From contig NZ_CP008796.1 of NCBI RefSeq assembly GCF_000734015.1, positions 1,650,001 to 1,682,000 of the forward strand: a stretch of DNA of 32,000 bases, written 5' to 3'. The position numbers were made by a program, and so were the translations under genes. The stretch comes from Thermodesulfobacterium commune DSM 2178. GTDB taxonomy: Bacteria; Desulfobacterota; Thermodesulfobacteria; Thermodesulfobacteriales; Thermodesulfobacteriaceae. Below, piece after piece: positions 1-21,261 of the stretch. A model generated the notes under the pieces. That model worked only from the letters and a program-made list of their open reading frames with translations. It was not told where the DNA came from and made no database searches. Every line of letters begins with the position of its first letter. The stretch's first letter is position 1.

Positions 1-1
1 T

Positions 2-133: not shown

Positions 134-134
134 G

Positions 135-1762: not shown

Positions 1763-1776
1763 AGGGGGGTACCTTT

Positions 1777-3796: not shown

Positions 3797-3808
3797 AGGG
3801 GTGAGTAG

Positions 3809-5275
3809 ATGGGTGAATTAGGCTTTCCAACCCTTTCTTTTCTTATTTTCTTTCCTTTGTTAGGGGCTGCTTTGATCTTTCTGGTTAAAAAAGAGAGTTT
3901 GGCTAAGTTTATTGCCTTAGGGACTACCCTGTTAAACTTGGTCTTTGGTATTCCTTTGTGGACAAATTTTGACAAAACCAATCCACAGTTTCAATTTGTA
4001 GAAACCTTTTGGTGGATTCCTTTCTTAAACGCTTACTATAAGGTCGGGATAGATGGAATAAGTTTACTTTTTGTTATGTTAACCCTTTTAATCAGTGTTT
4101 TATGTGTGTTGTGTTCCTGGACAGCTATTAAACAAAGGGTAAAAGAGTTTTATGCTTTACTTTTGATGATGGAAACCATCATGTTAGGTGTTTTTTGTGC
4201 GTTAGACATGTTTTTGTTTTATGTCTTTTGGGAAGCGATGCTTATCCCGATGTTTTTGCTTATAGGTATCTGGGGTAGTCACAACAGAATTTATGCCTCG
4301 GTTAAGTTTGTAATCTTTACCTTTGCTGGTAGTGTGTTGATGTTAATAGGAATTATCGTGCTTTATTATGCAGGAGGAAAGACTTTTGATGTCATAGAGC
4401 TTTCTAAAGTTCAATTGCCTGTAAACCTTCAATACTGGCTGTTTTTAGCCTTTTTTGTAGCTTTTGCCGTGAAGGTTCCCATGTTTCCCTTCCATACCTG
4501 GCTTCCTGATGCCCATACAGAAGCCCCTACCGCAGGTTCAGTGATTTTGGCTGGTATCCTTCTTAAAGTTGGGGCTTATGGATTTTTAAGGTTTACCATT
4601 CCTTTCTGTCCAGAAGCAACCCTTGGATTAAAAGAGATGATGCAAATAATTTCTGTTATAGCGATTATTTATGGAGCCTTAGTCACCCTTATGCAAACAG
4701 ACTTTAAACGTTTGATAGCCTATTCCAGTATAAGCCACATGGGTTTTGTTACGTTGGGTATCTTTACCCTAAATAAAGAAGCTATAGAAGGAGCGATCCT
4801 TCAAATGATCAATCACGGTATAGTAACTGGTGCACTTTTTATGTGTATAGGTGTTATCTACGAAAGAACACACACAAGAGACCTGAGTAAATATGGAGGA
4901 CTTGGAGAGGTTGTTCCGATTTTTGTGTTTTTTTATACCCTTTTTTCTGCGGCAGCCATAGGTTTTCCAGGCACTAACTCTTTTATAGGGGAATTTTTGA
5001 TAGCCCTTGGTGTTTTTAAAGACAGAATCCTTTTAGGAGCTTTTTTACCTCTGGGATTTGTCTTGGGAACCGCTTATATGGTTTGGCTTTATTATCGGGT
5101 TGTATTTAAAGAGGTGCCTGCTGAGATTAAAGACCAACTTTATGACCTCAACCTAAGAGAAGTGCTAATGTTTATACCTTTAGTGGTCTTGGTTTTTATG
5201 ATAGGTTTTTATCCCCAGGTGCTTTTAGGTGTGTTAAAGGACTCGGTGATACAAATCATCAATTTTCTAACCTAA
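3809..5275 (+). CDS. nuoM: NADH-quinone oxidoreductase subunit M
   Basis: FPFHTWLPDAHTEAPTAGSVILAGILLKVGAYGFLRF and LIAYSSISHMGFV are canonical NuoM motifs. It is 488 aa and sits directly before nuoN. Confidence 0.9.
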   Translation: MGELGFPTLSFLIFFPLLGAALIFLVKKESLAKFIALGTTLLNLVFGIPLWTNFDKTNPQFQFVETFWWIPFLNAYYKVGIDGISLLFVMLTLLISVLCVLCSWTAIKQRVKEFYALLLMMETIMLGVFCALDMFLFYVFWEAMLIPMFLLIGIWGSHNRIYASVKFVIFTFAGSVLMLIGIIVLYYAGGKTFDVIELSKVQLPVNLQYWLFLAFFVAFAVKVPMFPFHTWLPDAHTEAPTAGSVILAGILLKVGAYGFLRFTIPFCPEATLGLKEMMQIISVIAIIYGALVTLMQTDFKRLIAYSSISHMGFVTLGIFTLNKEAIEGAILQMINHGIVTGALFMCIGVIYERTHTRDLSKYGGLGEVVPIFVFFYTLFSAAAIGFPGTNSFIGEFLIALGVFKDRILLGAFLPLGFVLGTAYMVWLYYRVVFKEVPAEIKDQLYDLNLREVLMFIPLVVLVFMIGFYPQVLLGVLKDSVIQIINFLT

Positions 5276-5305
5276 GGCCTTTAGAAATAGTTTTAGGAGG
5301 TAACC

Positions 5306-6670
5306 ATGATAAACTTGACTCCGTTTTTTCCTGAACTTCTTTTTATAGGATTTACTTTGTTTTATTTTGTATTAGGCCTTTGGATAAAAAAAAGGGTGGT
5401 TCATTCCTTGCTGGTAATCGCTTTTTCTGTTTTAACTTTGCTTACGTTGTTTCAGGTTCAGGGAGAAGCCTTTAAAGGGATGTTTGTAGCTGATCCCTTT
5501 AGTCAAACCTTAAAACTTGTGTTTTTGATAAACTTAGGGATTTGTAGCCTTTTGGGTATGAATTACTCCCAGATAAAGGATGACCTCTTTTATGAGTTTA
5601 ACCTTCTTCTTATGCTTAGCACCTTAGGGATGATGTTTATGGTTTCTTCTAAGGAACTTTTAAGTCTTTTTCTTTCTTTAGAGTTTATGTCCCTTTGTCT
5701 TTATCTTTTGGCTGGTTTTGTGGTAACAGACCCTAAGACAAACGAGGCCTCACTTAAGTATTATCTCTTAGGTAGTATGTTTTCAGCCTTGTTGATTTTA
5801 GGGATTTCTATCTTTTACAGTATATTTGGAGGAACAACCTTTAAGATTATCGCTGAAAACCTTCCTTTGATGTCTCAACATCCGTTTTATCTTTTTACGG
5901 GAATTATATTGATCCTTTCTGCCTTTACTTTTAAGGCTGGGCTTGCCCCTTTTCATCAGTGGTCTCCTGATGTTTACGAAGGCGCTCCTACTCCGGTTAC
6001 AGCTTTTATGTCTGTAGGCCCTAAGGTTGCTGCCATAGGGGCTATGGCAAGTTTTCTCACCGAAGCTTTGTCTCAAAAACCTGAACTATGGGTAGGCCCT
6101 TTGATTTTTGTAGCCCTTTTAACCGCGGCCATAGGTAATATCTTAGCCTTAAGACAGGTCAATCTTAAACGTCTTCTTGCCTATTCTTCTATAGCCCATG
6201 CAGGCTATCTTTTACTTGCGGTTATAGCCTGCTCAACCTCAGGACTCAAGGCTATTTCTTTTTATGCCCTTGTATATACCTTTATGAACCTTGGTGCTTT
6301 TGCTACTCTTATTTCTTTTCCTCAAGGAGAAAGGATAAATGCCTTTTTAGGACTTTCTCAGGCTAACCTATTTTTAGCTATATCCATGTTAGTTTTCCTT
6401 TTTTCCCTGACAGGCCTTCCCCCTTTTGGTGGTTTTGTAGCCAAATTCTTTATATTTAAGTCTATCATAGAATCTGGATATACCTGGGTTGCGGTAATCT
6501 GTATTCTTTTCAGCATCCTTTCTGCATACTACTATCTAAGGGTAGGTGTAAAGATGTTTTTTTATGAAGGGCAAATCTCTATGCCTTCTATGGCTATATC
6601 TTTAAGATTGGTACTTGTTGTTGCCTTATGCTTTACCATTATCCTCGGGGTTTTCCCCTTTTTGCCTTAA
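5306..6670 (+). CDS. nuoN: NADH-quinone oxidoreductase subunit N
   Basis: APFHQWSPDVYEGAPTPVTAFMSVGPKVAA and LLAYSSIAHAGYLL are canonical NuoN motifs. It is 454 aa and is the last gene of the nuo-type arm. Confidence 0.9.
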   Translation: MINLTPFFPELLFIGFTLFYFVLGLWIKKRVVHSLLVIAFSVLTLLTLFQVQGEAFKGMFVADPFSQTLKLVFLINLGICSLLGMNYSQIKDDLFYEFNLLLMLSTLGMMFMVSSKELLSLFLSLEFMSLCLYLLAGFVVTDPKTNEASLKYYLLGSMFSALLILGISIFYSIFGGTTFKIIAENLPLMSQHPFYLFTGIILILSAFTFKAGLAPFHQWSPDVYEGAPTPVTAFMSVGPKVAAIGAMASFLTEALSQKPELWVGPLIFVALLTAAIGNILALRQVNLKRLLAYSSIAHAGYLLLAVIACSTSGLKAISFYALVYTFMNLGAFATLISFPQGERINAFLGLSQANLFLAISMLVFLFSLTGLPPFGGFVAKFFIFKSIIESGYTWVAVICILFSILSAYYYLRVGVKMFFYEGQISMPSMAISLRLVLVVALCFTIILGVFPFLP

Positions 6671-6706
6671 AAATATCTGTAATAAACATAAAAAGGAGGG
6701 ATTGGT

Positions 6707-8665
6707 ATGGCCAATCTTTCATTAATTCAACAGTTAAAAAAGAGACTTTTTTACATTTCATTGATCTTCTTTTTGACAAGTGGCTTCTTTTTGTATGTGG
6801 TTACCAAACATTTTATCTATGCTAAGGATACAGAAAAACTTATTGGGATTCTTGCGAACGCGTATAAGATAACCATTAAAGATGAAGGAGAAACTCTTGC
6901 ATCCTATGCCTCCTTGTTGGCCAATAGAGCTGTCAGTGATGTTTATGTATCTTTACTTAAGGAAGCAGGTACCCTTTCTGAGGTAAATGATGCCAATAAA
7001 AAGATTTTCGAAAAGTATGGTCAGATCCTTCGTGAAACAGTTACCCCCCAGATTAAAGCAGCTGGATTAAGTAAATATCATATACATTTTCATCTCCCTG
7101 GCCCAAGGTCTTTTTTACGCTGGAACCGTCCTCAAGGGGAAGATGTAAAACTTGACGACTTATCCACTTTTCGTTTTACTGTAGCTAAAGTGCAGAAGGA
7201 AAAACAGCTTCTTACTGGACTTGAGGCAGGAAGAGACGGTCTTTTCCTTAGGGGTATTGCTCCTATAGTAAGAGATGGACAAACCATTGGTTCTGTTGAA
7301 TTGGGAATGAATCTTAGAGATTTAGTTAAAAATTTACAGTCTACTTATACTCAAATTTCCCATTATGTGATCCTTGTAAACAAGGACTTAGAAAAGATTA
7401 TGAGCCCTTATCTTGCTAAGGGTGAGGCCAAAGTCTTAGACAAAGGAATTCTTTATTCTAAAACCGAAAACATCGAAGAGAACTTACTAAAAAAGCTTAT
7501 TAATGCCAAAAAATACCCTGTGGAGGTTGGCTCTTTAGTTTTTCACGCCATTCCTCTTTATGATTATTCAAACAACCAGATAGGATTTATTATCATAGGT
7601 ATCAAGCGTGGAGAGATTATAAATCTTTTTCGTTTTAGCGGATTTATCTTGGGGCTTGTTGCCTTTGTGGTGTTTTTCTTTGGTTTTATGGTGATAAACA
7701 AAACCTTACAGAAAATCTCACAATCTTTGTCAGACACAACCAATATGGTAGAAGAACTCGGTAGAGGTGGAGGCGATTTAACCTTTAGATTTGAAGTTAA
7801 GTCTCAAGACGAGTTAGGAGTGTTAGCCTCTAAATTTAACCATTTCTTAGAAACTTTAGCTTCGATAGTTAAAAACCTAATAGAAAAGGCTGAGGATTTG
7901 TTTAGACTTTCTAAAAAACTTCAAGACGATGTAGACACCACCTTTAACTCTGTTAAGGAATTTACGGAAAAAGCAGACCTTATAAGTGCAAGTTCATCTG
8001 AGACCGTAGAGGTTATAAATAATGTGACCACTCAACTTGATGAGCTTACTAAAGCCATCAAAGAGATAAGCGAAAAAGCCCAGTTAAGCAAGTCAATCGT
8101 AGCTGATACTGCCAGAGAAGTAGATAAATCAAAAAATTTAGTAGAAGAGTTGATTTCATCTTCTTCAACGATCATAGAAGTAGTAGACCTGATTAAAGAT
8201 ATCGCAGACCAGACCAATCTTCTTGCCCTCAATGCATCGATTGAGGCAGCTCGTGCTGGGGAAGCTGGCAAGGGGTTTACCGTAGTAGCCAACGAAGTTA
8301 AAGAGCTTGCCAAACAAACACAAGTTGCTACAGAAAACATCAAGAAAAAGATCGACCTTTTATTACAGAATAGCAATTCAGTTGCTCATTCTGTAGGAAG
8401 TATCGTAGAAATGATGAAAAAAGTAGAAGAGGCATCGGTGGCTATCGCTGCAGCAGTTGAAGAACAGGCTATAGTTGTCCAAAACGTCTTTGAGCATATT
8501 ACTTTTGCCAGAGACAAAGTGCTTTTAAACGAAGACCACGCTCAAGCCATAAAGATTGGTGTAGAAAAATTGATTAGCTCTTCTCAAAAGCTTAAGGCAT
8601 CAGGTGAAGAAGTAGGAAGAATTGCTGAAGAGATTAAAGATATAGTTTCTCAGTTTAAGGTATAA
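6707..8665 (+). CDS. Methyl-accepting chemotaxis protein with a periplasmic Cache-type sensor, HAMP and MCP signalling domains
   Basis: N-terminal TM, then about 280 aa between the TMs with a Cache-like pattern ([15 protein letters not shown]...[10 protein letters not shown]...[17 protein letters not shown]). HAMP segment is [25 protein letters not shown]. The highly conserved MCP hairpin is [50 protein letters not shown]. Confidence 0.92.
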
Positions 8666-8686
8666 TGTATAATCTTAGGTCAATTA

Positions 8687-8709
8687 GGCTCCCTCCTTTA
8701 GAGGGAGCC
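8687..8709 (+). terminator. GC-rich hairpin between convergent genes; likely intrinsic terminator of the MCP transcript
   Basis: GGCTCCCTC (8687-8695), loop CTTTA, GAGGGAGCC (8701-8709) form a perfect 9-bp stem. A T-rich tract follows on the + strand (TATAGATTTATTTTATGTTTT). On the minus strand no U-tract follows. Confidence 0.55.
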
Positions 8710-8718
8710 TATAGATTT

Positions 8719-8742
8719 ATTTTATGTTTTATTTTATGTTTT
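8719..8742. repeat. Perfect 12-bp tandem duplication (ATTTTATGTTTT x2)
   Basis: Read directly: copies at 8719-8730 and 8731-8742. The second copy runs into the stop codon (TTA 8741-8743 on + = TAA on -) of the response regulator gene. Confidence 0.9.
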
Positions 8743-10102
8743 AATCTTTTTCCTCTTCTTCCTGGTTAGAAATTCTAGAAAGAAGCCCATGGTGTTTCAT
8801 CTTAGTCCTCAGTTGTTTTCTTGAGATGCCTAACAACTGAGCCGCTTTAGTTTGGTTCCATCCAGTTTCTTCTAATGCTTTAAGGATAAGACTTTTTTCC
8901 ATTTCTAATAAGTTTAAGGTATTTGAGGGAGAAATTTCTTTTTCTTTTGAGCCTAAAATTCTTTTTGGGAGATGCTTTAGGGAAATTACTCCAGAGGTAG
9001 AAAGAATAACCGCTCTTTCTATCACATGCATAAGTTCTCTTACATTGCCAGGCCATTCGTAGTTTATCAACATGTCCATCACCTCAGGTTCTACCATCGG
9101 TATAGGACGATTGTTTTCCTTAGCAAATTTTTGGACAAAATGCTGTATAAGAAGAGGAATATCTTCTTTTCTTTCCCTAAGGGGAGGTAGGTGCACCCTT
9201 ACTACGTTAAGCCTCCAGTATAGGTCTTCTCTGAAAGAGCCTTCTTTAACCGCGTTTTCGAGATCTCTGTTGGTAGCAGCAATCACCCTTACATCAACCT
9301 TGATTTTGTTAAGTCCTCCCAACCTTTGAAATTCCTTTTCTTGCAAGAATCTTAAAAACTTTTTTTGTAGACTTGTAGGTAATTCTCCTATCTCGTCTAA
9401 AAATACAGTGCCCCCGTTAGCTAACTCTAAAAGTCCTATTTTTTTCTCTGTAGCTCCGGTAAATGCTCCTTTTTCGTATCCAAAAAGTTCGCTTTCTAAA
9501 AGATTCTCTGGAAGGGTAGTGCAGTCAACCACTATAAACGGACGGTCTTTTCTTTTGGAGAGCCTATGGATTGCCCTTGCTATCAGTTCTTTACCTGTAC
9601 CAGATTCTCCAGTAATAAGCACGTTAGAGTTACTATCAGCTACCATTTCTATTATATAAAAAATTTCTTTCATTACCGAACTTTTAGCTATGATCTCTGG
9701 AAATTTATGAGAGATATCTTCTTTATAGTCTAATTTTTCATGTTTAGAGATGGCATCTTTGATTACCTCAACCAGAAGGTTAGGGTCAACAGGTTTTACC
9801 AGATAATGAAAAGCCCCTAATTTCATAGCCTCTACAGCTTTTTCGATCGTTCCATAAGCAGTAAGCATGATTACCGGCAATACGATGTTTTCTTTTTTTA
9901 GCCACCTTAACATTTCTATCCCATCCATCCCAGGAAGCCTATAATCGAGAAGTAGACAGTGAGGTTTGTGTTTTCTAAGCTGAAAAATACCCTCTTCTAC
10001 AGTTTGGGCGGTTATTATAGTGTAATCATGTTTTTTGAGGATGGTAGAAATGGTTTTTAGACTGTTTATCTCATCATCTATAAAAAGTATTTTATAGTTC
10101 AT
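8741..10102 (-). CDS. Sigma-54-dependent response regulator (NtrC/AtoC family: REC + AAA+ + Fis-type HTH)
   Basis: Receiver domain (LLLDYRLPGMDG). Walker A GESGTGKE. The GAFTGA sigma54-contact loop (YEKGAFTGA). C-terminal HTH (AAQLLGISRKQLRTKMKHHGL). Confidence 0.93.
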   Translation of the reverse strand: MNYKILFIDDEINSLKTISTILKKHDYTIITAQTVEEGIFQLRKHKPHCLLLDYRLPGMDGIEMLRWLKKENIVLPVIMLTAYGTIEKAVEAMKLGAFHYLVKPVDPNLLVEVIKDAISKHEKLDYKEDISHKFPEIIAKSSVMKEIFYIIEMVADSNSNVLITGESGTGKELIARAIHRLSKRKDRPFIVVDCTTLPENLLESELFGYEKGAFTGATEKKIGLLELANGGTVFLDEIGELPTSLQKKFLRFLQEKEFQRLGGLNKIKVDVRVIAATNRDLENAVKEGSFREDLYWRLNVVRVHLPPLRERKEDIPLLIQHFVQKFAKENNRPIPMVEPEVMDMLINYEWPGNVRELMHVIERAVILSTSGVISLKHLPKRILGSKEKEISPSNTLNLLEMEKSLILKALEETGWNQTKAAQLLGISRKQLRTKMKHHGLLSRISNQEEEEKD

Positions 10103-11693
10103 GCCTTATCGGGAGGAAAACTTTAAATTCTGTCCCTTCTTCTTTTTTACTGAAAACAGATATCTTGCCTCCATGTTCTCTAACGATTTTTTCTACACAA
10201 GCAAGTCCCAGTCCTGATCCTGTAACTTTAGTAGTAAAAAACGGTTCAAATACCTTATCTAACAACTCCTCTGGGATCCCTTCGCCGGTATCTTTTACAG
10301 AAATAACTACCAATCCCCCTTCTCTTTGTGTCGCAACCGAGATTTTATCTCCTTTTTTCGTAGCGTCTCCAGCGTTTACCAAAAGGTTCAACACCACCTG
10401 TTTGAGTTGATAGGGGTCAAAATAAAACTCAGGTATAGAAGGATCTAAACTTAATTCTATTTGTTTTCCTTCTTCTTCAAACTCAGGTTTCACCAAATTT
10501 ATTATTTCTTTTATGATATTATTAATCTGCGTTTTTTCAAGTTTTAAAGGAACAGGCCTTGCATAAGTTAAAAAACCGGTGATCAGTTCATTTAATCTTT
10601 GGGTTTCTTTGTCTATGATAGAAAGAAATTCCTGCAAAATTTTACCTTTAAAGTTGGTTTTAAGGTAAGAACAAGCAGCCTTAATAGAGTTTAACGGATT
10701 TTTGATTTCATGAGCAACCACCATGGCCATCTCTGAAACCGCAGAATATTTTTCAAGCTTAATTTTTTCTTTGGTGGCTTTATCAAGTTGTTCCATATAA
10801 GACCTTAGGTCTGCTACCATCTTATTAAAACTTTCTATTACATAACCTAACTCATCACCACATGAATACTTATAAACAAAACAGTCTTCACACTCAATTT
10901 TTAAAACACTCTTACACCATTTTTTCGAATCTTCGTTAAGCCAACATCTGGTTTTTCCGTAAGAAGGGCATTGATAATCTTTACACTGGTAAAAGTCTTT
11001 ACATAAAATAAGGTTTTCGTTTTCACAAAATTCAAACTCGTTAGCCTGCATTTTTTGAATACTTTTTTTAAGTTTGTTTAGTGGCTTGGTTAGGGTGATA
11101 GAAATAAAATAGGAAACTACAAGTGCTGCCAACAGAAACCCACCTGACACAAAAAGCATATAATTTTTTAACGTCCTTACGGATTGTTCTATAAAATCAT
11201 TGATGTCTGCCTCTGAAACTCCTACCCTAACCGCACCTAAAGAAAAGTCTTCCTTGAAAACCGGACGGTTAAAGTGTTTTATCCCATTATTATCTAAACT
11301 TTCCCAGGTTTTGAAGGTAGAATCATTTACAGGAATAAATTGGCCTAATTGAGAAGGGTTGGTATGGGCTACTATCCTTCCGTTTTTATCAACAACCATC
11401 ACATATACTATCCCTGGAAGGTTTTTTAGAGAACTTACCTTTTCTTCCAGTTTAAGAGGGTCAAAAAAGACCAACCAGTCTACCACCTCTAAAGAAAAGT
11501 TTTCTAAGTTATGGTTTAGTCCTTCATAATATTGTTTTTTTAAGGAGTTTTTTTGGTAGTTTATTATCAAAACATTTACGCTAAAAAGTAATAAGGTTAT
11601 CAAAAACAAAAAAGAAAGAAAGATTCTGCTTTTAATGCTAAAACTTCTTAAAAGTTTATAAAAAGGTGATAAAAAATCTTTACGGATTAACAT
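10092..11693 (-). CDS. Sensor histidine kinase: 2 TM, periplasmic sensor domain, HAMP split by a Cys-rich insert, HisKA and HATPase_c
   Basis: TM1 IFLSFLFLITLLLFSVNVLII and TM2 FVSGGFLLAALVVSYFISI. HAMP halves are TKPLNKLKKSIQKMQANEFEF and GDELGYVIESFNKMVADL. H-box VVAHEIKNPLNSI, N-box LLVNAGDAT, G-boxes DTGEGI and GSGLGL. The stop overlaps the RR start by 11 nt. Confidence 0.92.
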   Translation of the reverse strand: MLIRKDFLSPFYKLLRSFSIKSRIFLSFLFLITLLLFSVNVLIINYQKNSLKKQYYEGLNHNLENFSLEVVDWLVFFDPLKLEEKVSSLKNLPGIVYVMVVDKNGRIVAHTNPSQLGQFIPVNDSTFKTWESLDNNGIKHFNRPVFKEDFSLGAVRVGVSEADINDFIEQSVRTLKNYMLFVSGGFLLAALVVSYFISITLTKPLNKLKKSIQKMQANEFEFCENENLILCKDFYQCKDYQCPSYGKTRCWLNEDSKKWCKSVLKIECEDCFVYKYSCGDELGYVIESFNKMVADLRSYMEQLDKATKEKIKLEKYSAVSEMAMVVAHEIKNPLNSIKAACSYLKTNFKGKILQEFLSIIDKETQRLNELITGFLTYARPVPLKLEKTQINNIIKEIINLVKPEFEEEGKQIELSLDPSIPEFYFDPYQLKQVVLNLLVNAGDATKKGDKISVATQREGGLVVISVKDTGEGIPEELLDKVFEPFFTTKVTGSGLGLACVEKIVREHGGKISVFSKKEEGTEFKVFLPIRHEL

Positions 11694-13335
11694 ATCTTTT
11701 TATAGGTTCAAATTCTTTATCTTCCACAGGTTTAAATTTTTTTACTTTCAGGTTTTTCAGGATAGAAGCAGGTAGATGAATGAGTGATTCTTGGACTTTT
11801 TTGGCAAGGTCCTTGTCTGCTTTAACCACCGCCCATGGCCAGTTTGGTAAAAACTCTGTTGGGGTCAAAACTTTTATCTGAGAAAGATCTACTTCTTTTC
11901 CAAAAACACCAAGAGCTGCCTCTCTTATGAACCCTGCGTCTGCTTCTTTTTTATACACCCCGATGATTACCCTTTCTTGCCTTTTTACATCTACTAACCG
12001 AAAATCTCGCCTTAAATTGTATCCTCTCTTTTCTAAATAAATTTTTTGCGAAAGAAATCCTCCAGCAGAATAGGGAGAAACTATGAAAATTCTTTTGTTT
12101 TTTAAATTTTCTATCTTTTTAATCGGGCTATCTTTTCTTACGATAATAACACCTCTAAACCTGTCTCCTCCACATACCTCACTTGGTTCATCTATACAAT
12201 CTTCTCCCACAGTTAGGGCTATGGCTTTTGCATGCCCAGATTTCGACAGAAGAGCATAAACATAGGGATTTTGATAGGCAAAGTGTACTTCTTTTTTCTT
12301 TACTAAGGTGATAAATTCTTCGAAATTTTTAGGGATGACAATTTTAAACTCCTTTCCTGTCTTTTCTGAAAGATACTTCATCAAAGGATCAAACCTCTGA
12401 TAGATAGTAAGCGGACTGTAAAGAGGTAAAATGGCAACCTTTATGGTATCAGGCCCGTATTTTATTAAATCCTTTCCTTTAAATAATTTTATCAGTACTC
12501 TTATGTAGTCAAAGTCTCTGTCTTCAGCAGGCACAAGTTTTTCTATCTGCAGGTTAGTTAAAACCTCTTTAGGAAGAGACACAAGGATTTCTTTTAATAA
12601 CTGTTTCTCTTTTAAAGCAGAGGTTGAAGCAATCAAAAATACAGGCACTTTTTCAGAGGACTTTATTACTTTAAGACCTGAGGTTAAATAAGGTTTGGCT
12701 ATCGATTCACTTAAGGCTCCTACCTCATAATCTCCTATCAATACAGAGAGAGCAATCCTTTTTTCCTGACCTAAAAAATCTACCTTAGAAAAGTCTTTTA
12801 AAGAAAGTTCTAAGTCTTTTAGCATGGACAAAGGGATTAGATAACTGAAAGAAGAATTTTTATCCCCTAAGGCAAGCCGTTTGTTAACAGCATCAAAAAT
12901 CCTTTCTATTCCTGAATTTTCTTTGGTTACAAAAATGCTGCTTGCCTCTCCCTGTCCTCCCTTGGGCTTAACTAGAGGAAAAATCTTTTGAGGATAAAGG
13001 GCCTTTAATTCGCAGTAAAAAGCTGGGTCTATCATTAGAAGATGTAGTTTATCCTCTGCCACTTTTTGGGTTAGCTCTTCAAAGTTGGCTGAGATGTCTA
13101 TCGAAACAGGTTTTTTAAGTTGATTTTCTAAATAGGTTTTTAAAGGATAAAGCTGTAAAAAGGTTTGTTGAGGAGAGCTTACGTTTAAGACCCCTATAAC
13201 TAAAGGAGGTCCGTTTAAAACCTCCGAGGGCTTATTTTCCTGAGTTTGTCTTCCTTTGTCTTTAAAACACCCGGATAATAAAAACCCTAAGAAGATGGTT
13301 AAAAATAGAGCCCAAAACCTATTTCTTTTTAACAT
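11680..13335 (-). CDS. Lipoprotein with two tandem PhnD-like (phosphonate/oxyanion ABC-type) periplasmic binding domains
   Basis: Signal peptide plus lipobox (FLGFLLSGC). Two repeats of the PhnD-like pattern occur, for example domain 2: YQNPYVYALL...FRGVIIVRKDSPIKKIENLKNKRIFIVSPYSAGGFLSQKIYLEKRG...EADAGFIREAAL. It is 551 aa, about twice a single PBP. No ABC permease or ATPase is nearby. It overlaps the HK start by 14 nt. Confidence 0.8.
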   Translation of the reverse strand: MLKRNRFWALFLTIFLGFLLSGCFKDKGRQTQENKPSEVLNGPPLVIGVLNVSSPQQTFLQLYPLKTYLENQLKKPVSIDISANFEELTQKVAEDKLHLLMIDPAFYCELKALYPQKIFPLVKPKGGQGEASSIFVTKENSGIERIFDAVNKRLALGDKNSSFSYLIPLSMLKDLELSLKDFSKVDFLGQEKRIALSVLIGDYEVGALSESIAKPYLTSGLKVIKSSEKVPVFLIASTSALKEKQLLKEILVSLPKEVLTNLQIEKLVPAEDRDFDYIRVLIKLFKGKDLIKYGPDTIKVAILPLYSPLTIYQRFDPLMKYLSEKTGKEFKIVIPKNFEEFITLVKKKEVHFAYQNPYVYALLSKSGHAKAIALTVGEDCIDEPSEVCGGDRFRGVIIVRKDSPIKKIENLKNKRIFIVSPYSAGGFLSQKIYLEKRGYNLRRDFRLVDVKRQERVIIGVYKKEADAGFIREAALGVFGKEVDLSQIKVLTPTEFLPNWPWAVVKADKDLAKKVQESLIHLPASILKNLKVKKFKPVEDKEFEPIKRYVNP

Positions 13336-14257
13336 CTTCTAAATACTCTCTAACGCTAAGTGCGGCTACAGCGCCCTCACCACAGGCAATCACTATTTGC
13401 CTAAAGGGTTTACTAACGCAGTCTCCACAGGCAAAAATTCCCTTCTGAGAGGTTTCCATCTTTTTATCTGTAATTATAAAACCGTTAGGGTCTAACTCTA
13501 CGAAACCTTTTAACCAAGAGGTATTAGGCTCATATCCTATAAAAATAAAGACCCCAGAAACTTCTAAATATTTTAGTTCTCCTGTTTTTTTATCTAAAAC
13601 CTTTATCCTTTCTACCTTGTGTTTTCCTTCGATAGCCTCTACGGTCGAGTTCAAGATTATCTCAATCTTAGGGTTTTTAAAAACCAAATTTTGCAAATAG
13701 GCCTCAGCCCTAAACTTATCTCTTCGGTGAATTAAAAAAATCTTCTTTACAAACTTGGTAAGTTCTAAGGCTTCTTTAAGAGCCGAATCTCCACCTCCTA
13801 CTACAGCCACCATCTCATCCTTAAAAAAAGGTCCGTCACAGGTAGCACAAAAAGAAACTCCCTTGCCTATCAATTCCTTTTCCCCAGGAATACCTAATTT
13901 TTTAGGGGATGCCCCTAAAGCTAAGATCACCGCATAACTTAAAACGTAGGTCTTGTCAGAAAACCAGATTTTAAAAAGTTCCTGTTCTTTTTCTATACTA
14001 ACGACTTCTTTTGATAATAAGTTCAACCCTAATCTTTCTACTTGCTTAACCATCTTTTCTATCAAGTCAAACCCTGATATACCTTCAGGAAATCCGGGAT
14101 AGTTTTCTATCTGTTCTGTAAGGACTACCTGACCACCTAAAAAGTTTTTTTCTATAAGTAGAGTGTTTAGCATCCCCCTTTGAGCATAAAGATAGGCAGT
14201 AAGACCTGCAGGCCCTCCACCTATTATGGTTAGATCATAAGTAGTTTGTTGGGTCAT
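13319..14257 (-). CDS. trxB: Thioredoxin-disulfide reductase (low-Mr type)
   Basis: FAD site IIGGGPAGLTA, redox-active CATCDG, NADPH site VVGGGDSALKEA and HRRDKFRA. It is 312 aa. Its 3' end overlaps the PBP start by 17 nt. Confidence 0.92.
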   Translation of the reverse strand: MTQQTTYDLTIIGGGPAGLTAYLYAQRGMLNTLLIEKNFLGGQVVLTEQIENYPGFPEGISGFDLIEKMVKQVERLGLNLLSKEVVSIEKEQELFKIWFSDKTYVLSYAVILALGASPKKLGIPGEKELIGKGVSFCATCDGPFFKDEMVAVVGGGDSALKEALELTKFVKKIFLIHRRDKFRAEAYLQNLVFKNPKIEIILNSTVEAIEGKHKVERIKVLDKKTGELKYLEVSGVFIFIGYEPNTSWLKGFVELDPNGFIITDKKMETSQKGIFACGDCVSKPFRQIVIACGEGAVAALSVREYLEDVKKK

Positions 14258-14270
14258 TTTGGTTTCCCAT

Positions 14271-14298
14271 TTTACTTTTTTTAGTTTTATATTATAAT
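14271..14298 (+). promoter_or_regulatory. Putative sigma70-type promoter for hypB (TTTACT-16 nt-TATAAT) in the trxB/hypB divergent region
   Basis: TATAAT at 14293-14298 and a -35-like TTTACT at 14271-14276. It lies about 30 nt upstream of ATG 14330, with RBS AGAGGTGA at 14318-14325. Pattern match only. Confidence 0.35.
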
Positions 14299-14329
14299 TT
14301 CTTTTTAAATTTTATTAAGAGGTGAAAAG

Positions 14330-15088
14330 ATGTGTAAAGAATGTGGGTGTGGATTGGTTAATCATCCTTCAGAAGGATCGGAAAAACATCATGAACACCA
14401 CCATGGACATACCCATTCCAAGGAAACCTTGCAACTTCTTGAAGACATCATGAAATATAACGAATTTCAGGCAAGACATAACAGGGAACATTTTGAAGAA
14501 TATGGAATTTACGCCATAAACCTTATGAGTGCCCCAGGTTCTGGGAAAACTACCTTGTTAGAAAAAACTATAGAACTTCTTTCAGGAAAGTTAAGGATTG
14601 GGGTGATAGAAGGGGACTTAGAGACAGAAAGAGACGCTGAAAGGATAAGGAAAAAAGGAGTCCCTGTGTATCAAATAACCACAGGCAGTGCCTGCCATTT
14701 AGACGCCTCTTTAATTCATAAAGCTATGCATAAACTTCCGATGGATCAGATCGACCTTCTTTTTGTAGAAAACATAGGGAATCTTGTTTGTCCTGCAAGC
14801 TATGACCTTGGCACCCATCTTAACGTCACCCTTCTTTCAGTGCCTGAAGGAGAAGACAAACCAGAAAAATATCCTCTTATTTTTAAGGTTTCTCAGTTGG
14901 TGGTTATCACCAAGATAGATTTGCTTCCCTACTTTGACTTTGACCTGGAAAAGGTAAAAGCCCAGATACAAAAGATCAATCCTAAGGCTCAGATTATCGC
15001 CCTTTCTGCCAAAACAGGAGAAGGGTTTGACCTTTGGGTTAAATTTTTAGAGGATTCCTATAATCAACATAAAAAATCTCTCAGATAG
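14330..15088 (+). CDS. hypB: Hydrogenase nickel-incorporation GTPase HypB
   Basis: N-terminal CxxCGC (MCKECGCG), His-rich stretch (HHEHHHGHTH), P-loop GSGKTTL, and a CH motif region (TGSACHLDA). Confidence 0.95.
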   Translation: MCKECGCGLVNHPSEGSEKHHEHHHGHTHSKETLQLLEDIMKYNEFQARHNREHFEEYGIYAINLMSAPGSGKTTLLEKTIELLSGKLRIGVIEGDLETERDAERIRKKGVPVYQITTGSACHLDASLIHKAMHKLPMDQIDLLFVENIGNLVCPASYDLGTHLNVTLLSVPEGEDKPEKYPLIFKVSQLVVITKIDLLPYFDFDLEKVKAQIQKINPKAQIIALSAKTGEGFDLWVKFLEDSYNQHKKSLR

Positions 15089-15098
15089 AGGAAAGGTT

Positions 15099-16109
15099 AT
15101 GGGAGTTGAAAAACTTTTGTTAGCTCATGGAGGAGGCGGAGAGGAAACCTTATCTTTGATAAAAGATTTTATTCTCAAATATTTTACCAACCCTATTCTT
15201 GAGCCTCTTGAAGATGCAGCTTTACTAACCAATCAAATTTCTCGATTGGCTTTCACCATAGATGGTTTTACCGTAAAACCTATCTTCTTTAAAGGTGGCA
15301 ACATAGGAAAACTTGCTGTAACTGGCACGGTAAATGATTTAGTGGTAATGGGGGCTAAACCTTTATATCTTACGGTAGGTTTTATCATCGAAGAAGGGTT
15401 TAAAATCAAAGATTTAGAAAAGATTTTACAGTCTATGCAAGAAGAGGCCATAAAAAACGAAATTTACATCGTGGCAGGAGATACAAAAATCGTACCTAAG
15501 TCAGAGGTAGACGGTATTTTTATCACAACCTCAGGTATAGGAGAGGTGATTTATTCAGGCATTTCTTGTAAAAACCTAAAACCAGGAGACGTTATCTTGG
15601 TTTCTGGCCCTATAGGAGACCATGGGGCCTGTATTTTGGCAGAAAGAGAAGGTATAAAAGTAGACATAGAGTTAGAAAGTGACTGCGAAACCCTTTGGCC
15701 TGTGTTAAAACCCCTTTTTGAAAGTGGGATTGAAATCCATGCGATGAGAGACCCAACCCGTGGAGGATTAGCCGCTAATCTTCATGAATGGGCTTATAGT
15801 TCTCAGGTAAATCTGGTGGTAGAGGAAGAAAAAATTCCTGTGAGGCCTCAGGTAAAGGCCTTTTGTGAGGCCCTTGGATTTGAGCCTTATCATTTAGCCT
15901 GTGAAGGAAGAGTAGTAATAGCCTTACCAGAAAAAGATGCCGAAAAGGCTTTAGAAATTTTAAGGTCTCATCCATCTGCAGCTGAAGCTAACATCATAGG
16001 ACAGGTGTTGGACCATAGTTCCTCTCCTCAAGTATATCTCAAAACACTGTATGGCACTCATAGGGTTTTAGAAAATACCTCAGGAGAACTCTTCCCGAGG
16101 ATTTGTTAG
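15099..16109 (+). CDS. hypE: Hydrogenase maturation (carbamoyl dehydratase) protein HypE
   Basis: AIR-synthase-like fold motifs are present. The C-terminus ends ...GELFPRIC, the conserved HypE PRIC motif. It is 336 aa. Confidence 0.93.
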   Translation: MGVEKLLLAHGGGGEETLSLIKDFILKYFTNPILEPLEDAALLTNQISRLAFTIDGFTVKPIFFKGGNIGKLAVTGTVNDLVVMGAKPLYLTVGFIIEEGFKIKDLEKILQSMQEEAIKNEIYIVAGDTKIVPKSEVDGIFITTSGIGEVIYSGISCKNLKPGDVILVSGPIGDHGACILAEREGIKVDIELESDCETLWPVLKPLFESGIEIHAMRDPTRGGLAANLHEWAYSSQVNLVVEEEKIPVRPQVKAFCEALGFEPYHLACEGRVVIALPEKDAEKALEILRSHPSAAEANIIGQVLDHSSSPQVYLKTLYGTHRVLENTSGELFPRIC

Positions 16110-16118
16110 GTAAAGCCT

Positions 16119-16469
16119 ATGCATGAGTTTTTTATCGTTCAAAACGTGATAAAAACCGTAGAAGACTTGATGGTTAATCACCCTAAGAAAAAAGTAGTAA
16201 AGGCGGTTTTGTTAATAGGAAGATTTTCTGGGGTTGAGCCTGAGTTATTACAAACCGCCCTTGATTTTTTTAAACAAGGAAGCGTTTTAAAAGATGCAGA
16301 AATCGTGATAGAAATAGAAGACCTTAGGATGAGATGTCAGAAATGTCAGCAAGAATTTTCAAAAGAGAAATGGGATCTTACCTGTCCTTTTTGTGGCTCT
16401 TTTGAAACTGAGGTTCTTTCAGGAGAAGAGATGTTACTCAAAAGCTTAGAACTGGTCGATGAGGATTAG
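16119..16469 (+). CDS. hypA: Hydrogenase nickel insertion protein HypA
   Basis: N-terminal MHE nickel site. Zinc site CQKCQ...CPFCGS. It is 116 aa. Confidence 0.92.
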   Translation: MHEFFIVQNVIKTVEDLMVNHPKKKVVKAVLLIGRFSGVEPELLQTALDFFKQGSVLKDAEIVIEIEDLRMRCQKCQQEFSKEKWDLTCPFCGSFETEVLSGEEMLLKSLELVDED

Positions 16470-18711
16470 ATACCGGATCAGGATAAACGGGGTAGTCCAG
16501 GGGGTTGGTTTTCGCCCTTTTGTGTATAACCTTGCTAAATCCTTAGGGTTGACAGGTTTTGTCAGCAACGATACCAACGGAGTTTTTATCGAGGTTGAAG
16601 GCAACGAGGATACTCTGCAGGATTTTTTAGAGAGGTTAGTTAAAGAAAAACCCCGGCTTTCGCAAATTTACCGTGTGGTTCATGAAAAACTTCCCTCTGT
16701 AGGCTATGAAGACTTTTTGATTAAAAAAAGCCTTAAAGATGAAGAGATAACCTTAGACATCTTGCCTGATGTAGCTACCTGTGAATTTTGTTTAGAAGAA
16801 CTGTTTAATCCTTCAGACCGAAGGTATCGATATCCCTTTATCAACTGCACCCTTTGTGGACCAAGGTTTACCATCATAGAGAGTTTACCTTATGACCGAG
16901 AAAAGACGGTGATGAAAGAATTTACGATGTGTCCTGCATGTTTTGAAGAATATACCGATCCTACTGATAGGAGGTTTCATGCCCAACCTATAGCTTGCCC
17001 GATCTGTGGCCCTCAGCTTGAATTCTATGATCTTAAACGAAACAAGCTGGCAGAAAAGGAAGAGGCTTTATATCAAGCCATAGAAAAAATAAAACAGAAA
17101 AAAATAGTAGCTGTCAAAGGTTTAGGAGGATTTCATCTTGTCTGCGATGCTACAGACAGAGAGGTGGTAAAACTTTTAAGACAAAGAAAGAGAAGGTCTA
17201 AAAAGCCTTTAGCTGTGATGTTTAAGGATTTAGTCCAGTTAGAAGAATATTGTTTGGTTACCTCTCAGGAAAAGGAGCTACTTTTATCTCCTTCTCAGCC
17301 GATAGTCCTTTTAGAAAAAAAAAGTAAGCTTTTACCTGAGGAAATAGCCCCAGGATTAAAAAAAATAGGAGCTTTTTTGCCCTACACCCCTTTGCATCAC
17401 TTAATTCTAAAAGAGATAGACCTTCCTTTGGTGGTTACCTCTGCCAACCTTTCAGATGAACCTATAGTGATAGACAACGAAGAGGCCTTTAACAAACTTT
17501 CCTCCCTTGCAGATTACTTGCTTCTTCATAACCGAAAAATCCTAAGAAGAGCTGATGATTCGGTGGTAAAAGTAATAGCTGGTGGTCCTGTTTTTATAAG
17601 AAGGGCAAGAGGTTATGCACCCTTGCCGGTTTTTCTTCCCTTTAACGTAAAAAAACGGGTACTTGCGGTAGGTCCCAGGGAAAAAAACACCTTTGCCCTT
17701 GCCTTTCAAAACAAAATAGTGCTAAGTCAGCACATCGGAGACATAGAAACCTTAGAAGACCTAAAAGATTTCGAAAAAACCCTTTTAGACTTTACCAAAC
17801 TTTATGAGTTTGAACCTGAGGTAGTAGTAGCTGACCTCCATCCTTTTTATGAGACTACTAAATGGGCAGAACGTTTTGCCAAAGAACAGGGGCTTGAACT
17901 TATAAAGATACAGCATCATTTTGCCCACATCCTTTCTTGTATGGCAGAAAACGGGATCTTTGATGAGGTTTTGGGGGTTGCCTGGGATGGTACAGGATAT
18001 GGAGAAGACCATACCGTTTGGGGAGGAGAGTTTCTCGTAGTAAAAGGGAATAAGTATCAGAGGGTTGGCCATTTTAAGCATTTTAGGTTAATAGGAGGAG
18101 AAAAAGCGGTAAAAGAACCTAAAAGAGTAGCCTTAAGTTTGATGTTTGAACTTTTAGGAGAAAAAACTTTCGACCTCTCCTTACCTTTTTTAAAAGAGTT
18201 TACCAAACAGGAGTTGACACTTCTTTATCAAGCCTGGAAAAAGGGTATAAATTCACCCTTAACCTCTTCTTGTGGAAGGCTTTTTGATGGGGTGGCTGCG
18301 CTAACAGGTTTAAACTTTGTTAACCACTATGAGGGAGAGTCTGCGATGCAGTTAGAAGACCTATTTTTGTATGATTTAGAAGATGCTTACGCAATAAGAA
18401 TAGAGGAAAAAGAAGAAATCCTGATTTTTGACTGGGAAAGTATGATAGAAGAGATTGCCTTTGGAAAAGAGCCTTTACCAGTAAAAGCTACCAAATTTAT
18501 CAACACTTTGGCTAAGGTTTGCGAAGAGATAGCTACGAGAATAGGGATAGAAAAGGTATGTCTTTCTGGTGGGGTTATGATGAACAAGCCTCTGGTAGAA
18601 AGGGTTAGAGAAAGGCTTTCTAAAAAGGGATTTAAGGTCTATCTACAAAGAAAAGTTCCTCCCAACGACGGAGGTCTTTCTTTGGGACAAGCTCTATATC
18701 CCAATCTTTAA
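16459..18711 (+). CDS. hypF: Carbamoyltransferase HypF
   Basis: Acylphosphatase domain (INGVVQGVGFRPFVY), two zinc-finger pairs (CxxC...RYRYPFINCTLCGPRF; CPACFEEY...RRFHAQPIACPICGP), a YrdC-like region, and a Kae1-like C-terminus ending PPNDGGLSLGQA. It overlaps the hypA stop by 11 nt. Confidence 0.95.
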   Translation: MRIRYRIRINGVVQGVGFRPFVYNLAKSLGLTGFVSNDTNGVFIEVEGNEDTLQDFLERLVKEKPRLSQIYRVVHEKLPSVGYEDFLIKKSLKDEEITLDILPDVATCEFCLEELFNPSDRRYRYPFINCTLCGPRFTIIESLPYDREKTVMKEFTMCPACFEEYTDPTDRRFHAQPIACPICGPQLEFYDLKRNKLAEKEEALYQAIEKIKQKKIVAVKGLGGFHLVCDATDREVVKLLRQRKRRSKKPLAVMFKDLVQLEEYCLVTSQEKELLLSPSQPIVLLEKKSKLLPEEIAPGLKKIGAFLPYTPLHHLILKEIDLPLVVTSANLSDEPIVIDNEEAFNKLSSLADYLLLHNRKILRRADDSVVKVIAGGPVFIRRARGYAPLPVFLPFNVKKRVLAVGPREKNTFALAFQNKIVLSQHIGDIETLEDLKDFEKTLLDFTKLYEFEPEVVVADLHPFYETTKWAERFAKEQGLELIKIQHHFAHILSCMAENGIFDEVLGVAWDGTGYGEDHTVWGGEFLVVKGNKYQRVGHFKHFRLIGGEKAVKEPKRVALSLMFELLGEKTFDLSLPFLKEFTKQELTLLYQAWKKGINSPLTSSCGRLFDGVAALTGLNFVNHYEGESAMQLEDLFLYDLEDAYAIRIEEKEEILIFDWESMIEEIAFGKEPLPVKATKFINTLAKVCEEIATRIGIEKVCLSGGVMMNKPLVERVRERLSKKGFKVYLQRKVPPNDGGLSLGQALYPNL

Positions 18712-19162
18712 GTTGAGAAACCACCGCTTCAATCAAAGGGATAAAATTAGCCTTTACTGAAGGAGAAAGTTCATACCTCATCTCAAGGCTTTCAGGTTCT
18801 AACCCTAACACCACAAGCTCCTCAGGAGAAAAACCTCTCATCTCAGCTAAGGTGAGTATGTCTAAAAAACTTACCTCGTGGATGGAGAGTTTTTCAAGAA
18901 TCTGTTTAGGTAGGGTGTCTTTAGTAAATTTGTGAAGGGTGCCAGGAGGACTTCCTTTTGCGATGGCATCTATTACCAAAAGTCTTTTGGCTTTTTCTAT
19001 GTAAGGAAGTAGTTGAAAACTCCCTACTCCTCCGTCAACAAGCTCCACCTTTTCAGAAGGAACTTCAAAAAACTCTTCCAAAACCTTAACTGCTAAAACT
19101 CCTATCCCTTCGTCTGCAAGTAAAACATTCCCTATCCCTAATACCACAACTTTATCCATCAT
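18632..19162 (-). CDS. Hydrogenase maturation endopeptidase (HyaD/HybD/HoxM family)
   Basis: N-terminal VVLGIGNVLLADEGIGV (the GxGNxxxxD[DE]GxG motif), LLVIDA, and the HEVSFLDIL His motif. It is 176 aa. The last 80 nt overlap the hypF 3' end on the opposite strand. Confidence 0.88.
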   Translation of the reverse strand: MMDKVVVLGIGNVLLADEGIGVLAVKVLEEFFEVPSEKVELVDGGVGSFQLLPYIEKAKRLLVIDAIAKGSPPGTLHKFTKDTLPKQILEKLSIHEVSFLDILTLAEMRGFSPEELVVLGLEPESLEMRYELSPSVKANFIPLIEAVVSQLKDWDIELVPKKDLRRWEELFFVDRP

Positions 19163-19312
19163 CGATAAACTCTCTCATTATTTTTTAGACGAAGTCTTTA
19201 AAATTTTAATATACCATTTAAATATTAATTTAGAAAGTTGATATTGACTTTTACAAAAATGGGAAAAATAATAAAATTAAGATTTGAGTTAAACTTTAAA
19301 TGATTTTATGAC

Positions 19313-21259: not shown

Positions 21260-21261
21260 AA

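Follow-up and report, generated by a model that had tools for sequence, protein, structure and literature searches.

One locus of Thermodesulfobacterium commune DSM 2178 raises the question of what is sensed by a tandem periplasmic binding protein (PBP) that is encoded together with a histidine kinase (HK) and a sigma-54 activator of the response-regulator type (RR), and which genes the three proteins control. The locus lies in a stretch of 32,000 nucleotides (nt) (contig NZ_CP008796.1, positions 1,650,001 to 1,682,000 of the forward strand), which is called the window here and is numbered from its first letter. Comparison with related loci points, with a probability of roughly 0.7, to a substrate-induction circuit of the XSR type (as in AioXSR), through which the trio would switch on the neighbouring operon for a PhsA/PsrA-like molybdoenzyme and a Nuo module. 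The genes of the trio are the following.

8741-10102, minus strand: sigma-54 activator (RR), 453 amino acids (aa)
10092-11693, minus strand: histidine kinase (HK), 533 aa
11680-13335, minus strand: binding protein (PBP), 551 aa, the presumed primary sensor

The open reading frames (ORFs) overlap by 11 nt between RR and HK (10092-10102) and by 14 nt between HK and PBP (11680-11693), as confirmed by reading the junctions, and these values match exactly those given in an earlier note on this DNA, which was made from the sequence alone. That note derived both co-translation and a fixed stoichiometry from the overlaps; translational coupling is the most that can be inferred from them, and fixed stoichiometry, which exceeds what an overlap shows, was not accepted. 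A scan seeded with a PBP profile, using one genome per species and flanks of 8 kb on either side, yielded 80 loci from three phyla: Thermodesulfobacteriota, Nitrospirota and, with one metagenome-assembled genome (MAG), Myxococcota. The hosts comprise Thermodesulfobacteriaceae, Thermodesulfovibrionales, Dissulfurispiraceae and other Nitrospirota, Desulfohalobiaceae, and a single Anaeromyxobacteraceae MAG. PBP, HK and RR were found in the same order and on the same strand in 79, 77 and 66 of the 80 loci, respectively, and loci without one of the genes stop at a contig edge or have frameshifts, so that kinase and activator follow the PBP in essentially every locus that is long enough. The PBP gene lies directly upstream of the kinase gene and often overlaps it. 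Family searches of the window ORFs revealed no ABC ATPase or permease, in agreement with the earlier note, and neither phnCE, ptx or htx genes nor ABC components were linked to the trio in the 80 loci, apart from a single, unrelated ABC ATPase-like ORF 7.3 kb away. The note had made linkage to the kinase and independence from ABC permeases its own test of a signalling rather than a transport role for the PBP; since the trio is retained and ABC partners are lacking, the signalling role is supported.

Two further observations concern the conservation of the trio. In T. hydrogeniphilum DSM 14290 (contig L016, 7980-12411) it looks decayed: the kinase is split into four reading-frame segments by three frameshifts, the PBP ORF ends early, and the activator is without its C-terminal ~70 residues, so that these genes are either pseudogenes or the product of assembly errors. 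The genes for an MBL-hydrolase, murJ, a TPR protein and mfd, which lie upstream of the trios of Nitrospirota, were set aside as housekeeping synteny; enhancer and sigma-54 sites are not associated with them.

The RR is composed of Response_reg, Sigma54_activat (E 1e-72), AAA_lid_14 and C-terminal HTH_8 domains (Pfam), with a phospho-acceptor at D53, Walker A at 165 and GAFTGA at 212. It has the constituents of the NtrC family, namely a receiver domain with its Asp, an AAA+ domain with Walker A and GAFTGA, and a Fis-type helix-turn-helix (HTH), and because it falls below every curated equivalog cut-off (AtoC, 465 vs 714), it was classed as an unnamed member of the NtrC-family enhancer-binding proteins. 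To define its regulon, the ORFs flanking the trio in relatives were clustered and annotated, -24/-12 sites were scanned for, and the upstream sequences were read. A palindrome, TGTCCC-N4-GGGACA, was found 60-130 nt upstream of -24/-12 promoters, usually in two copies 31-32 bp apart. Across 1.126 Mb, there are 54 sites with at most one mismatch, compared with 2.0 in shuffled sequences, and 28 pairs spaced by 28-34 bp, compared with 0. The intergenic copies stand 60-130 nt upstream of TGGCAC-N5-TTGCW-like sites, either before recurrent neighbour genes or in the gap that separates the PBP gene from a divergent target, and the matches of the -24/-12 scan likewise fall in the intergenic regions that precede the recurrent neighbours.

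These recurrent neighbours include a TauE/SafE permease (PF01925), which in most lineages bears ~250 aa of extracytoplasmic sequence at its N-terminus, as a fused or a split domain, and often has the gene for a small membrane protein behind it; a YeeE/YedE Sulf_transp permease (PF04143) with DsrE-like proteins; an outer-membrane protein of the phosphate-porin family (Porin_O_P; an anion porin); a Usp protein; and a single-domain PhnD-like binding protein. Further members are a 695-aa molybdoenzyme closest to PhsA, a DmsB-like iron-sulfur (Fe-S) subunit, and a GltD/YgfK-like flavoprotein (TIGR03315, 346 bits). The molybdoenzyme served as the seed for another, independent set of 80 loci. In 23 of these, kinase and activator genes are adjacent, mostly together with the tandem PBP, and the molybdoenzyme and its Fe-S partner are followed across the set either by a Nuo operon without nuoEFG or by the GltD-like flavoprotein. 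In Thermodesulfovibrio (L096, L097, L101-L103 and L117), the trio lies outside the loci, yet usp-tauE-psrAB-nuo has a perfect TGTCCCAAATGGGACA before it, ~90 nt upstream of TGGCAAAGTCTTTGCT. The regulon, which the earlier note had given as unknown, can therefore be replaced by a specific prediction, based on the conserved enhancer and the -24/-12 sites before PhsA-like operons: the shared enhancer appears to tie the PBP-HK-RR trio to the psrAB-like-nuo operon, the permeases and the porin, a linkage that is new.

Some loci carry additional genes of note. The single-domain PhnD-like binding protein is encoded beside a TauE/TSUP-type permease at L020 13326-14165, L023 14560-15396 and similar loci of Nitrospirota; we know of no description of binding-protein dependence in TauE/TSUP-type transporters. 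Genes with FmdE domains, some fused to a ModE-type HTH, stand beside the trio at L003 6333-7076 and L023 5784-6758 and in L028 and L035, and one enhancer-like site of L023 lies inside such an FmdE-domain gene.

In the window itself, the strand opposite to the trio carries the end of an operon that converges on the RR gene.

135-1616, 2018-3796, 3809-5275 and 5306-6670, plus strand: four antiporter-like Nuo subunits, the tail of the operon (contig comparison)
6707-8665, plus strand: gene for a methyl-accepting chemotaxis protein (MCP; dCache_3, HAMP, MCPsignal), the last gene on the operon strand, of uncertain membership

Contigs L081-L084 and L165-L167 extend the window leftward. The metagenome contig L167 is 100% identical to window positions 1-4645 and was taken as the window's own genome, while L081 is 97.6-99% identical over the rest. 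The operon is tightly packed and starts ~7.4 kb to the left of the window, with its promoter ~7.5 kb to the left; it continues in L167 at 10001-22076, and its 8.6-kb tail occupies window positions 1-8665. Its order is molybdoenzyme (691-695 aa), Fe-S subunit (168 aa, with its end overlapping nuoB), nuoB-D-I-A-C-H-J-K, a 493-aa NuoL-like subunit, an 83-aa ORF, nuoL-M-N and then the MCP gene. The operon is without nuoEFG, and the molybdoenzyme appears to take the place of the NADH module of complex I. Among curated models, the molybdoenzyme matches PhsA (NF012032, 534 bits) far above ArrA (136) and YnfE/F (160-172); the PhsA match begins at model position 41, which indicates an enzyme without a Tat leader, and the target enzyme is thus predicted to be PhsA-like but cytoplasmic. 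The MCP gene call begins 186 nt after nuoN in L081, and in Thermodesulfovibrio (L017, L043) an MCP gene likewise lies between the nuo genes and the activator gene; its place beside the operon may reflect taxis towards the same compound.

The putative control region of this operon was located in L167, where a dsrMKJOP-like cluster and the molybdoenzyme gene are separated by 168 nt that contain TGTCCTTTTTGGGACA, with one mismatch. The sequence AGGCAT-N5-TTGTT follows ~85 nt downstream, ~65 nt before the molybdoenzyme start codon. A sister species (L085, 81% identical) has TGTCCCTTTTGGCACA and AGGCACAATTTTTGCT in the same layout. Within the window, sigma-54 promoters do not exceed chance expectation (89 matches vs 92.8 expected), and a stricter scan returned zero sites, consistent with the earlier note, which had found none. 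Its statement that the target operon lies elsewhere holds only in the literal sense; the probable target is the convergent neighbour.

The PBP, which would receive the signal, carries the following features.

13267-13335, minus strand: signal peptide and lipobox, aa 1-23, LLSG-C23 (read from the sequence)
12466-13206, minus strand: PBP domain 1, aa ~44-290, with S161-S162-F163, E191 and F233 at PtxB ligand positions (alignment to Ps_PtxB, 5o2j)
11692-12450, minus strand: PBP domain 2, aa ~296-548, with S423-A424-G425, Q453, F393-R394, Y306, R471 and W499 at PtxB ligand positions (alignment to 5o2j)

The description of this protein as a 551-aa lipoprotein with two tandem PhnD-like domains is supported by three lines of evidence. 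PF12974 (Phosphonate-bd) covers two stretches (Pfam, E 2.4e-88), with a TIGR01098 match of 200 bits (NCBIfam); the N-terminus, MLKRNRFWALFLTIFLGFLLSGC, bears a lipobox whose Cys23 is kept in at least 90% of 59 family members; and both halves align over their full length with PtxB (E ~1e-16 to 1e-17). The two domains are 26% identical (E 6e-18), which indicates that the doubling is an old internal duplication. T. thermophilum DSM 1276 (L001) encodes an identical PBP. In Foldseek searches with the AlphaFold2 (AF2) model (pLDDT 90.1, pTM 0.83), each half reached TM-scores of 0.83-0.85 to ligand-bound PtxB, compared with ~0.61 to apo-PtxB, and two-lobed proteins of the PBP fold, such as transferrins and the tandem Venus-flytrap domain of BvgS (4q0c), were returned as well.

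The phosphite ligands of Ps_PtxB are S124-T125-S126, H155, Y94, D16 and a capping Tyr (Y208 in Te_PtxB), and within this family, along with the STS-H anion motif, the capping Tyr confers specificity for phosphite and Trp52 for hypophosphite (PMC5700983). Te_PtxB Y208 aligns with Y203 in 5o2j numbering. The PBP pocket residues, assigned by sequence alignment to PtxB only, correspond as follows.

PtxB S124-T125-S126: S161-S162-F163 in domain 1, S423-A424-G425 in domain 2
PtxB H155: E191 in domain 1, Q453 in domain 2
PtxB Y94: E130 in domain 1, F393 (with R394 next to it) in domain 2
PtxB capping Tyr (Y203): F233 in domain 1, W499 in domain 2

Both clefts are highly conserved among orthologues. 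In the family alignment, Q453 of domain 2 lies within a conserved K451-R452-Q453-E454 motif, in which K451, Q453 and E454 are invariant, and the nearby Y306 and R471 are invariant as well; with its several conserved basic residues, domain 2 looks more likely to be the anion site. The pocket of AioX consists of Tyr88, Cys106, Tyr131, Ser161, Ser163, His192 and Asp210 (PMC5908839). Mapped through the PtxB alignments, its S-x-S, His and hinge Tyr positions are not kept: S-x-S is replaced by S423-A-G425 and S161-S-F163, the His by Q453 and E191, and the hinge Tyr by F393 and E130 (domains 2 and 1, respectively). The phmmer match to AioX is marginal (E 0.025-0.03). The PBP has the PhnD/PtxB fold, yet lies outside both the PtxB and the AioX specificity groups.

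Two variants of the PBP were noted. Domain 2 has a 10-residue insert relative to PtxB (aa 380-388; 12172-12198, minus strand), with Cys380 and Cys388, which may form a periplasmic disulfide; the pair is confined to the Thermodesulfobacterium and Thermodesulfovibrio clades. At L024 3217-5481 (P0076), the tandem PBP ORF is 754 aa long and begins with a DsbD/CcdA-like membrane region (PF02683), and may be a true fusion or else a miscalled start.

Two regions of the kinase are of particular interest.

11169-11558, minus strand: periplasmic sCache-like domain of HK, aa ~46-175 (PF17203 sCache_3_2, 31.5 bits, cut-off 28.4)
10860-11027, minus strand: Cys-rich insert between the HAMP helices, HK aa 223-278 (orthologue conservation)

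Pfam assigns sCache_3_2, a partial HAMP, HisKA and HATPase_c to the HK, and together with the RR motifs these domains bear out the pairing of a membrane histidine kinase with an NtrC-type activator recognised earlier. The protein runs from a first transmembrane helix through the periplasmic sCache domain and a second transmembrane helix to a HAMP split by the Cys-rich insert, then to HisKA (H328) and HATPase_c; its AF2 model has an overall pLDDT of 79.6, with values near 90 in the periplasmic domain. By analogy with AioS, the sCache-like domain is presumed to be the docking site for the PBP. The insert, 55-65 residues long in the orthologue alignment, lies between the first HAMP helix and the GDE(I/L)G...FNxM second helix; C231, C237, C242, C250, C268 and C271 are invariant and C278 is nearly so. 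It is covered by no Pfam family and is modelled with low confidence (pLDDT 44-60). An exhaustive search of 1.84 billion proteins yielded only 31 representative clusters with the insert, among them MCP, GGDEF, HD-GYP and PAS-kinase proteins in which the Cys pattern is kept; its occurrence in such varied signalling proteins, and in so few clusters, suggests a rare, portable signalling module. A cytoplasmic metal or Fe-S (redox) input is plausible.

Among known systems, the trio most resembles AioXSR, ArxXSR and ArrXSR, in which a separate PF12974 protein is encoded with an sCache-like kinase and a response regulator. AioR and ArxR are sigma-54 activators of the AtoC/NtrC type, and their binding sites lie upstream of an RpoN promoter (PMC5908839, PMC8050422). 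The target is a nearby molybdenum bis-pyranopterin guanine dinucleotide (bis-PGD) respiratory enzyme and the output depends on sigma-54, as is predicted for the trio. In silico, the trio displays this architecture in its PBP-kinase-regulator unit, in an RR with GAFTGA, and in the enhancer and -24/-12 sites before PhsA-like operons. The comparison with AioXSR drawn in the earlier note accordingly holds for the three-component architecture, whereas membership of the AioX family does not (E 0.025 against AioX, 2.6e-17 against PtxB). Unlike AioXSR, the trio has a doubled, lipid-anchored PBP of two PtxB-like modules, a kinase whose HAMP is split by a Cys-rich insert, a target composed of a cytoplasmic PhsA/PsrA-like enzyme, a Nuo module and permeases instead of Aio, Arx or Arr, and an enhancer motif of its own, TGTCCC-N4-GGGACA. 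The trio is set apart from the known XSR systems by its tandem lipid-anchored PBP, its split-HAMP Cys module, its enhancer and its regulon.

Other systems share parts of this design. In TtrSR and ThsSR, a molybdoenzyme of the Ttr/Phs type, encoded nearby, is induced when a PhnD-like periplasmic module detects a sulfur oxyanion, which is tetrathionate for TtrS and thiosulfate for ThsS (PMC5408782); a similar mode is tentatively proposed for the trio. In those systems, however, kinase and PhnD-like domain form one chain, which signals to a regulator that is not of the sigma-54 activator type, whereas the binding module of the trio is a separate tandem lipoprotein with a predicted sigma-54-dependent output, and its domain 2 matches the TtrS model NF040750 only partially (58 bits vs a cut-off of 750). 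PtxB, PhnD and HtxB share the fold and Pfam family (PF12974) of the PBP, which differs from them in having no ABC partner genes, in its two modules per chain, in always being encoded with a kinase, and in the replacement of STS-H and the capping Tyr. BvgS also has two tandem PBP-type II modules feeding a histidine kinase; the likeness is architectural only, its modules being built into the kinase chain and coming from another PBP family. The predicted target is of the same operon type as the PsrAB-Nuo operon noted in Thermodesulfovibrio sp. N1 (THER_0567-0582), for which proton translocation coupled to the redox chemistry of sulfur compounds was suggested (PMC5165239); L017 is the contig of that strain. 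That work proposed no regulator, promoter or inducer, whereas the shared enhancer now links the operon to the trio. In the literature searched, no earlier description of the trio, or of a regulator or inducer for the PsrAB-Nuo operon, was found, nor does the paper on the D. vulgaris sigma-54 regulome name a PhnD-type partner.

From the observed gene architecture, the conservation of the trio, and the positions of enhancers and promoters, we infer a chain of ligand binding, docking, phosphotransfer and positive regulation. The trio would be transcribed, along with an upstream trxB gene (see below), from a sigma-70-type promoter beside hypB, and the PBP, judging from its sequence, would be exported and held by a lipid anchor at Cys23. 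A periplasmic oxyanion would then be enclosed by one of its PtxB-like clefts or by both, with domain 2 and its conserved Lys/Arg/Gln/Trp lining being the better candidate. The liganded PBP would dock on the sCache domain of the HK, in analogy with AioX and AioS, whereupon the HK would autophosphorylate at H328 and pass the phosphate to D53 of the activator; the Cys-rich module that splits the HAMP might, more speculatively, add a cytoplasmic metal or redox input. The phosphorylated activator is expected to bind TGTCCC-N4-GGGACA ~60-130 nt upstream of the -24/-12 promoter and to drive open-complex formation by sigma-54 RNA polymerase. In T. commune, the unit so controlled would comprise the PhsA/PsrA-like molybdoenzyme, the Fe-S subunit, nuoBDIACHJK with the four antiporter-like subunits and perhaps the MCP gene; in relatives, the same enhancer would also drive the genes for the TauE/YeeE-type permeases, the anion porin, Usp and the DsrE-like proteins.

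Several observations weigh against this circuit or parts of it. The window contains no TGTCCC-N4-GGGACA, the presumed promoter being outside it, and the window's genome shows one enhancer copy only, with a mismatch. The promoter in L167 has GT instead of the near-invariant GC at -12, which places it below the scan threshold, and it was recognised only by its position and by comparison with L085. The molybdoenzyme stays under the PhsA cut-off (694 bits). As for the sensor, the canonical STS-H anion motif is missing from both pockets, and the Glu that replaces the His in domain 1 speaks against a simple oxyanion site there. Finally, several of the neighbours (YeeE/YedE, DsrE and the YgfK-like flavoprotein) are also encountered in selenium contexts.

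Provided that the proposed circuit is right, the ligand is tentatively taken to be thiosulfate or a closely related inorganic sulfur oxyanion, an assignment to which we give a little under an even chance. It is suggested by the regulon, with its PhsA-like enzyme, TauE, YeeE/YedE, DsrE and anion porin; by the hosts, which are sulfate or thiosulfate reducers and sulfur disproportionators; and by the precedent of the PhnD-like sensor domains of TtrS and ThsS. The single-domain binding protein of the regulon (L020) has the same pocket motifs as PBP domain 2, which points in the same direction. Proteomics further revealed that TauE and a partner membrane protein rise during thiosulfate disproportionation, for which a cytoplasmic PhsAB-like enzyme was proposed (PMC13490349). 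Of the ligands listed in the earlier note, a sulfur oxyanion fits the regulon, whereas phosphite or hypophosphite and arsenite do not.

Four alternatives to a sulfur-sensing PBP were weighed. An unlikely one, though the best of them, is that the PBP is not the signal receiver: the HK would sense directly, through its sCache pocket or the Cys-rich module, and the PBP would be a scaffold, a ligand buffer or the binding protein of the TauE permease. The sCache domains of other kinases do bind small ligands, the split-HAMP module is conserved and portable among signalling proteins, and the regulon codes for redox enzymes. However, linkage of the PBP to the kinase is as tight as that of the activator, with the PBP gene always immediately upstream, and the strong conservation of both clefts and the precedents of AioX, TorT and LuxP (PMC8050422) likewise speak against this alternative.

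It is less probable still that a selenium oxyanion (selenite or selenate) or arsenate is sensed, with the PhsA-like enzyme serving as a selenium or arsenic reductase. This idea draws on the YeeE/YedE, DsrE-like and YgfK-like neighbours, on a weak PBP match to TIGR04553 (putative selenate-binding protein, 59 bits), and on ArrX being among the nearest solved structures, but it is countered by the model scores of the molybdoenzyme, by the loss of the AioX/ArrX pocket residues (PMC5908839), by the sulfate-reducing and sulfur-disproportionating hosts, and by the response of TauE and its partner to thiosulfate (PMC13490349).

A sensor of phosphite, hypophosphite or phosphonate, or a PhnD/PtxB-type transport binding protein, is highly improbable. 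PF12974 and TIGR01098 are the best family matches and PtxB is the nearest solved structure; the residues that define phosphite specificity, however, are replaced (STS-H, Y94 and the capping Tyr becoming SSF/E/F in domain 1 and SAG/Q/W in domain 2; PMC5700983), the PhnD model TIGR03431 gives 131 bits vs a cut-off of 261, phosphite-type and ABC genes were not seen in the 80 loci, and the regulon genes are of the sulfur type. Sensing of molybdate or tungstate, which would match molybdoenzyme synthesis to cofactor supply, is the least probable of the four: despite the FmdE-type genes beside some trios (L003, L023, L028, L035) and weak PF13531 or PF12727 matches in some PBP family members, the FmdE neighbours are sporadic and the conserved regulon consists of permeases, porin, DsrE and Usp, not of mod, tup or moa genes.

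A further reading concerns how the molybdoenzyme and the pump would work together. In Salmonella, electron transfer from menaquinol to thiosulfate, which is uphill by ~0.3 V, depends on proton motive force; a link to a reversible Nuo-type pump would therefore make sense. It is possible, although we hold it with clear reservation, that the trio is the sensor of an undescribed respiratory machine, in which the molybdoenzyme replaces NuoEFG on the pump, and that it integrates a periplasmic substrate input, received by the tandem lipoprotein, with a cytoplasmic redox or Fe-S input, received by the Cys-rich module. Such a machine could, for example, spend proton motive force on driving electrons from menaquinol to thiosulfate or, alternatively, could conserve energy by oxidising a low-potential sulfur compound.

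Nuo complexes without the subunits that oxidise NADH occur widely among sulfate reducers and sulfur disproportionators, with few of their electron partners identified; the linkage of one such complex to a Psr/Phs-like molybdoenzyme was noted previously and never explained. As the trio most likely controls the molybdoenzyme-Nuo operon, the ligand of the sensor should name the substrate of the respiratory complex and, if so, would name it for sulfate reducers and disproportionators of at least three phyla. The system offers practical handles in a soluble binding protein for in vitro ligand screening, a 16-bp motif from which the regulon of any genome can be predicted, and a pairing of promoter and activator with which the inducer could be detected in vivo. 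The AioXSR design principle would be extended from arsenic to, probably, sulfur metabolism. The sensor protein is also seen here in a tandem, lipid-anchored form, and the rare Cys-rich HAMP insert is a candidate new signalling module.

The remaining features at the borders of the trio are listed here.

13319-14257, minus strand: trxB-like gene for thioredoxin-disulfide reductase, 312 aa (TIGR01292, 386 bits, cut-off 343)
14291-14338, minus strand: sigma-70-like promoter candidates between trxB and hypB, TTTACA-18-TAAAAT and TTAATA-16-TATAAT, each with 10/12 consensus matches
8685-8711, between the convergent MCP and RR genes: hairpin of 11 bp with 7 G-C pairs

The end of trxB overlaps the start of the PBP gene by 17 nt, making the cluster a four-gene unit in this genome. 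Among the orthologous loci, this linkage is restricted to the T. thermophilum/hveragerdense clade (L001, L002, L081-L084); trxB was rejected as a conserved fourth component and is a lineage-specific passenger of the PBP-HK-RR operon. The candidates at 14291-14338 are the probable promoter of trxB-PBP-HK-RR, and the trxB-hypB intergenic region contains no TGTCCC-N4-GGGACA. The hairpin is probably a bidirectional terminator. Divergent from trxB, positions 14330-19162 encode hypB, hypE, hypA and hypF (hydrogenase maturation), and after them a HycI-type maturation protease; these hyp genes also border the trio in T. hydrogeniphilum, where trxB is absent. Farther along the window, 26827-28032 on the plus strand encodes a transposase of the IS256/Mutator family (PF00872, E 3e-63).

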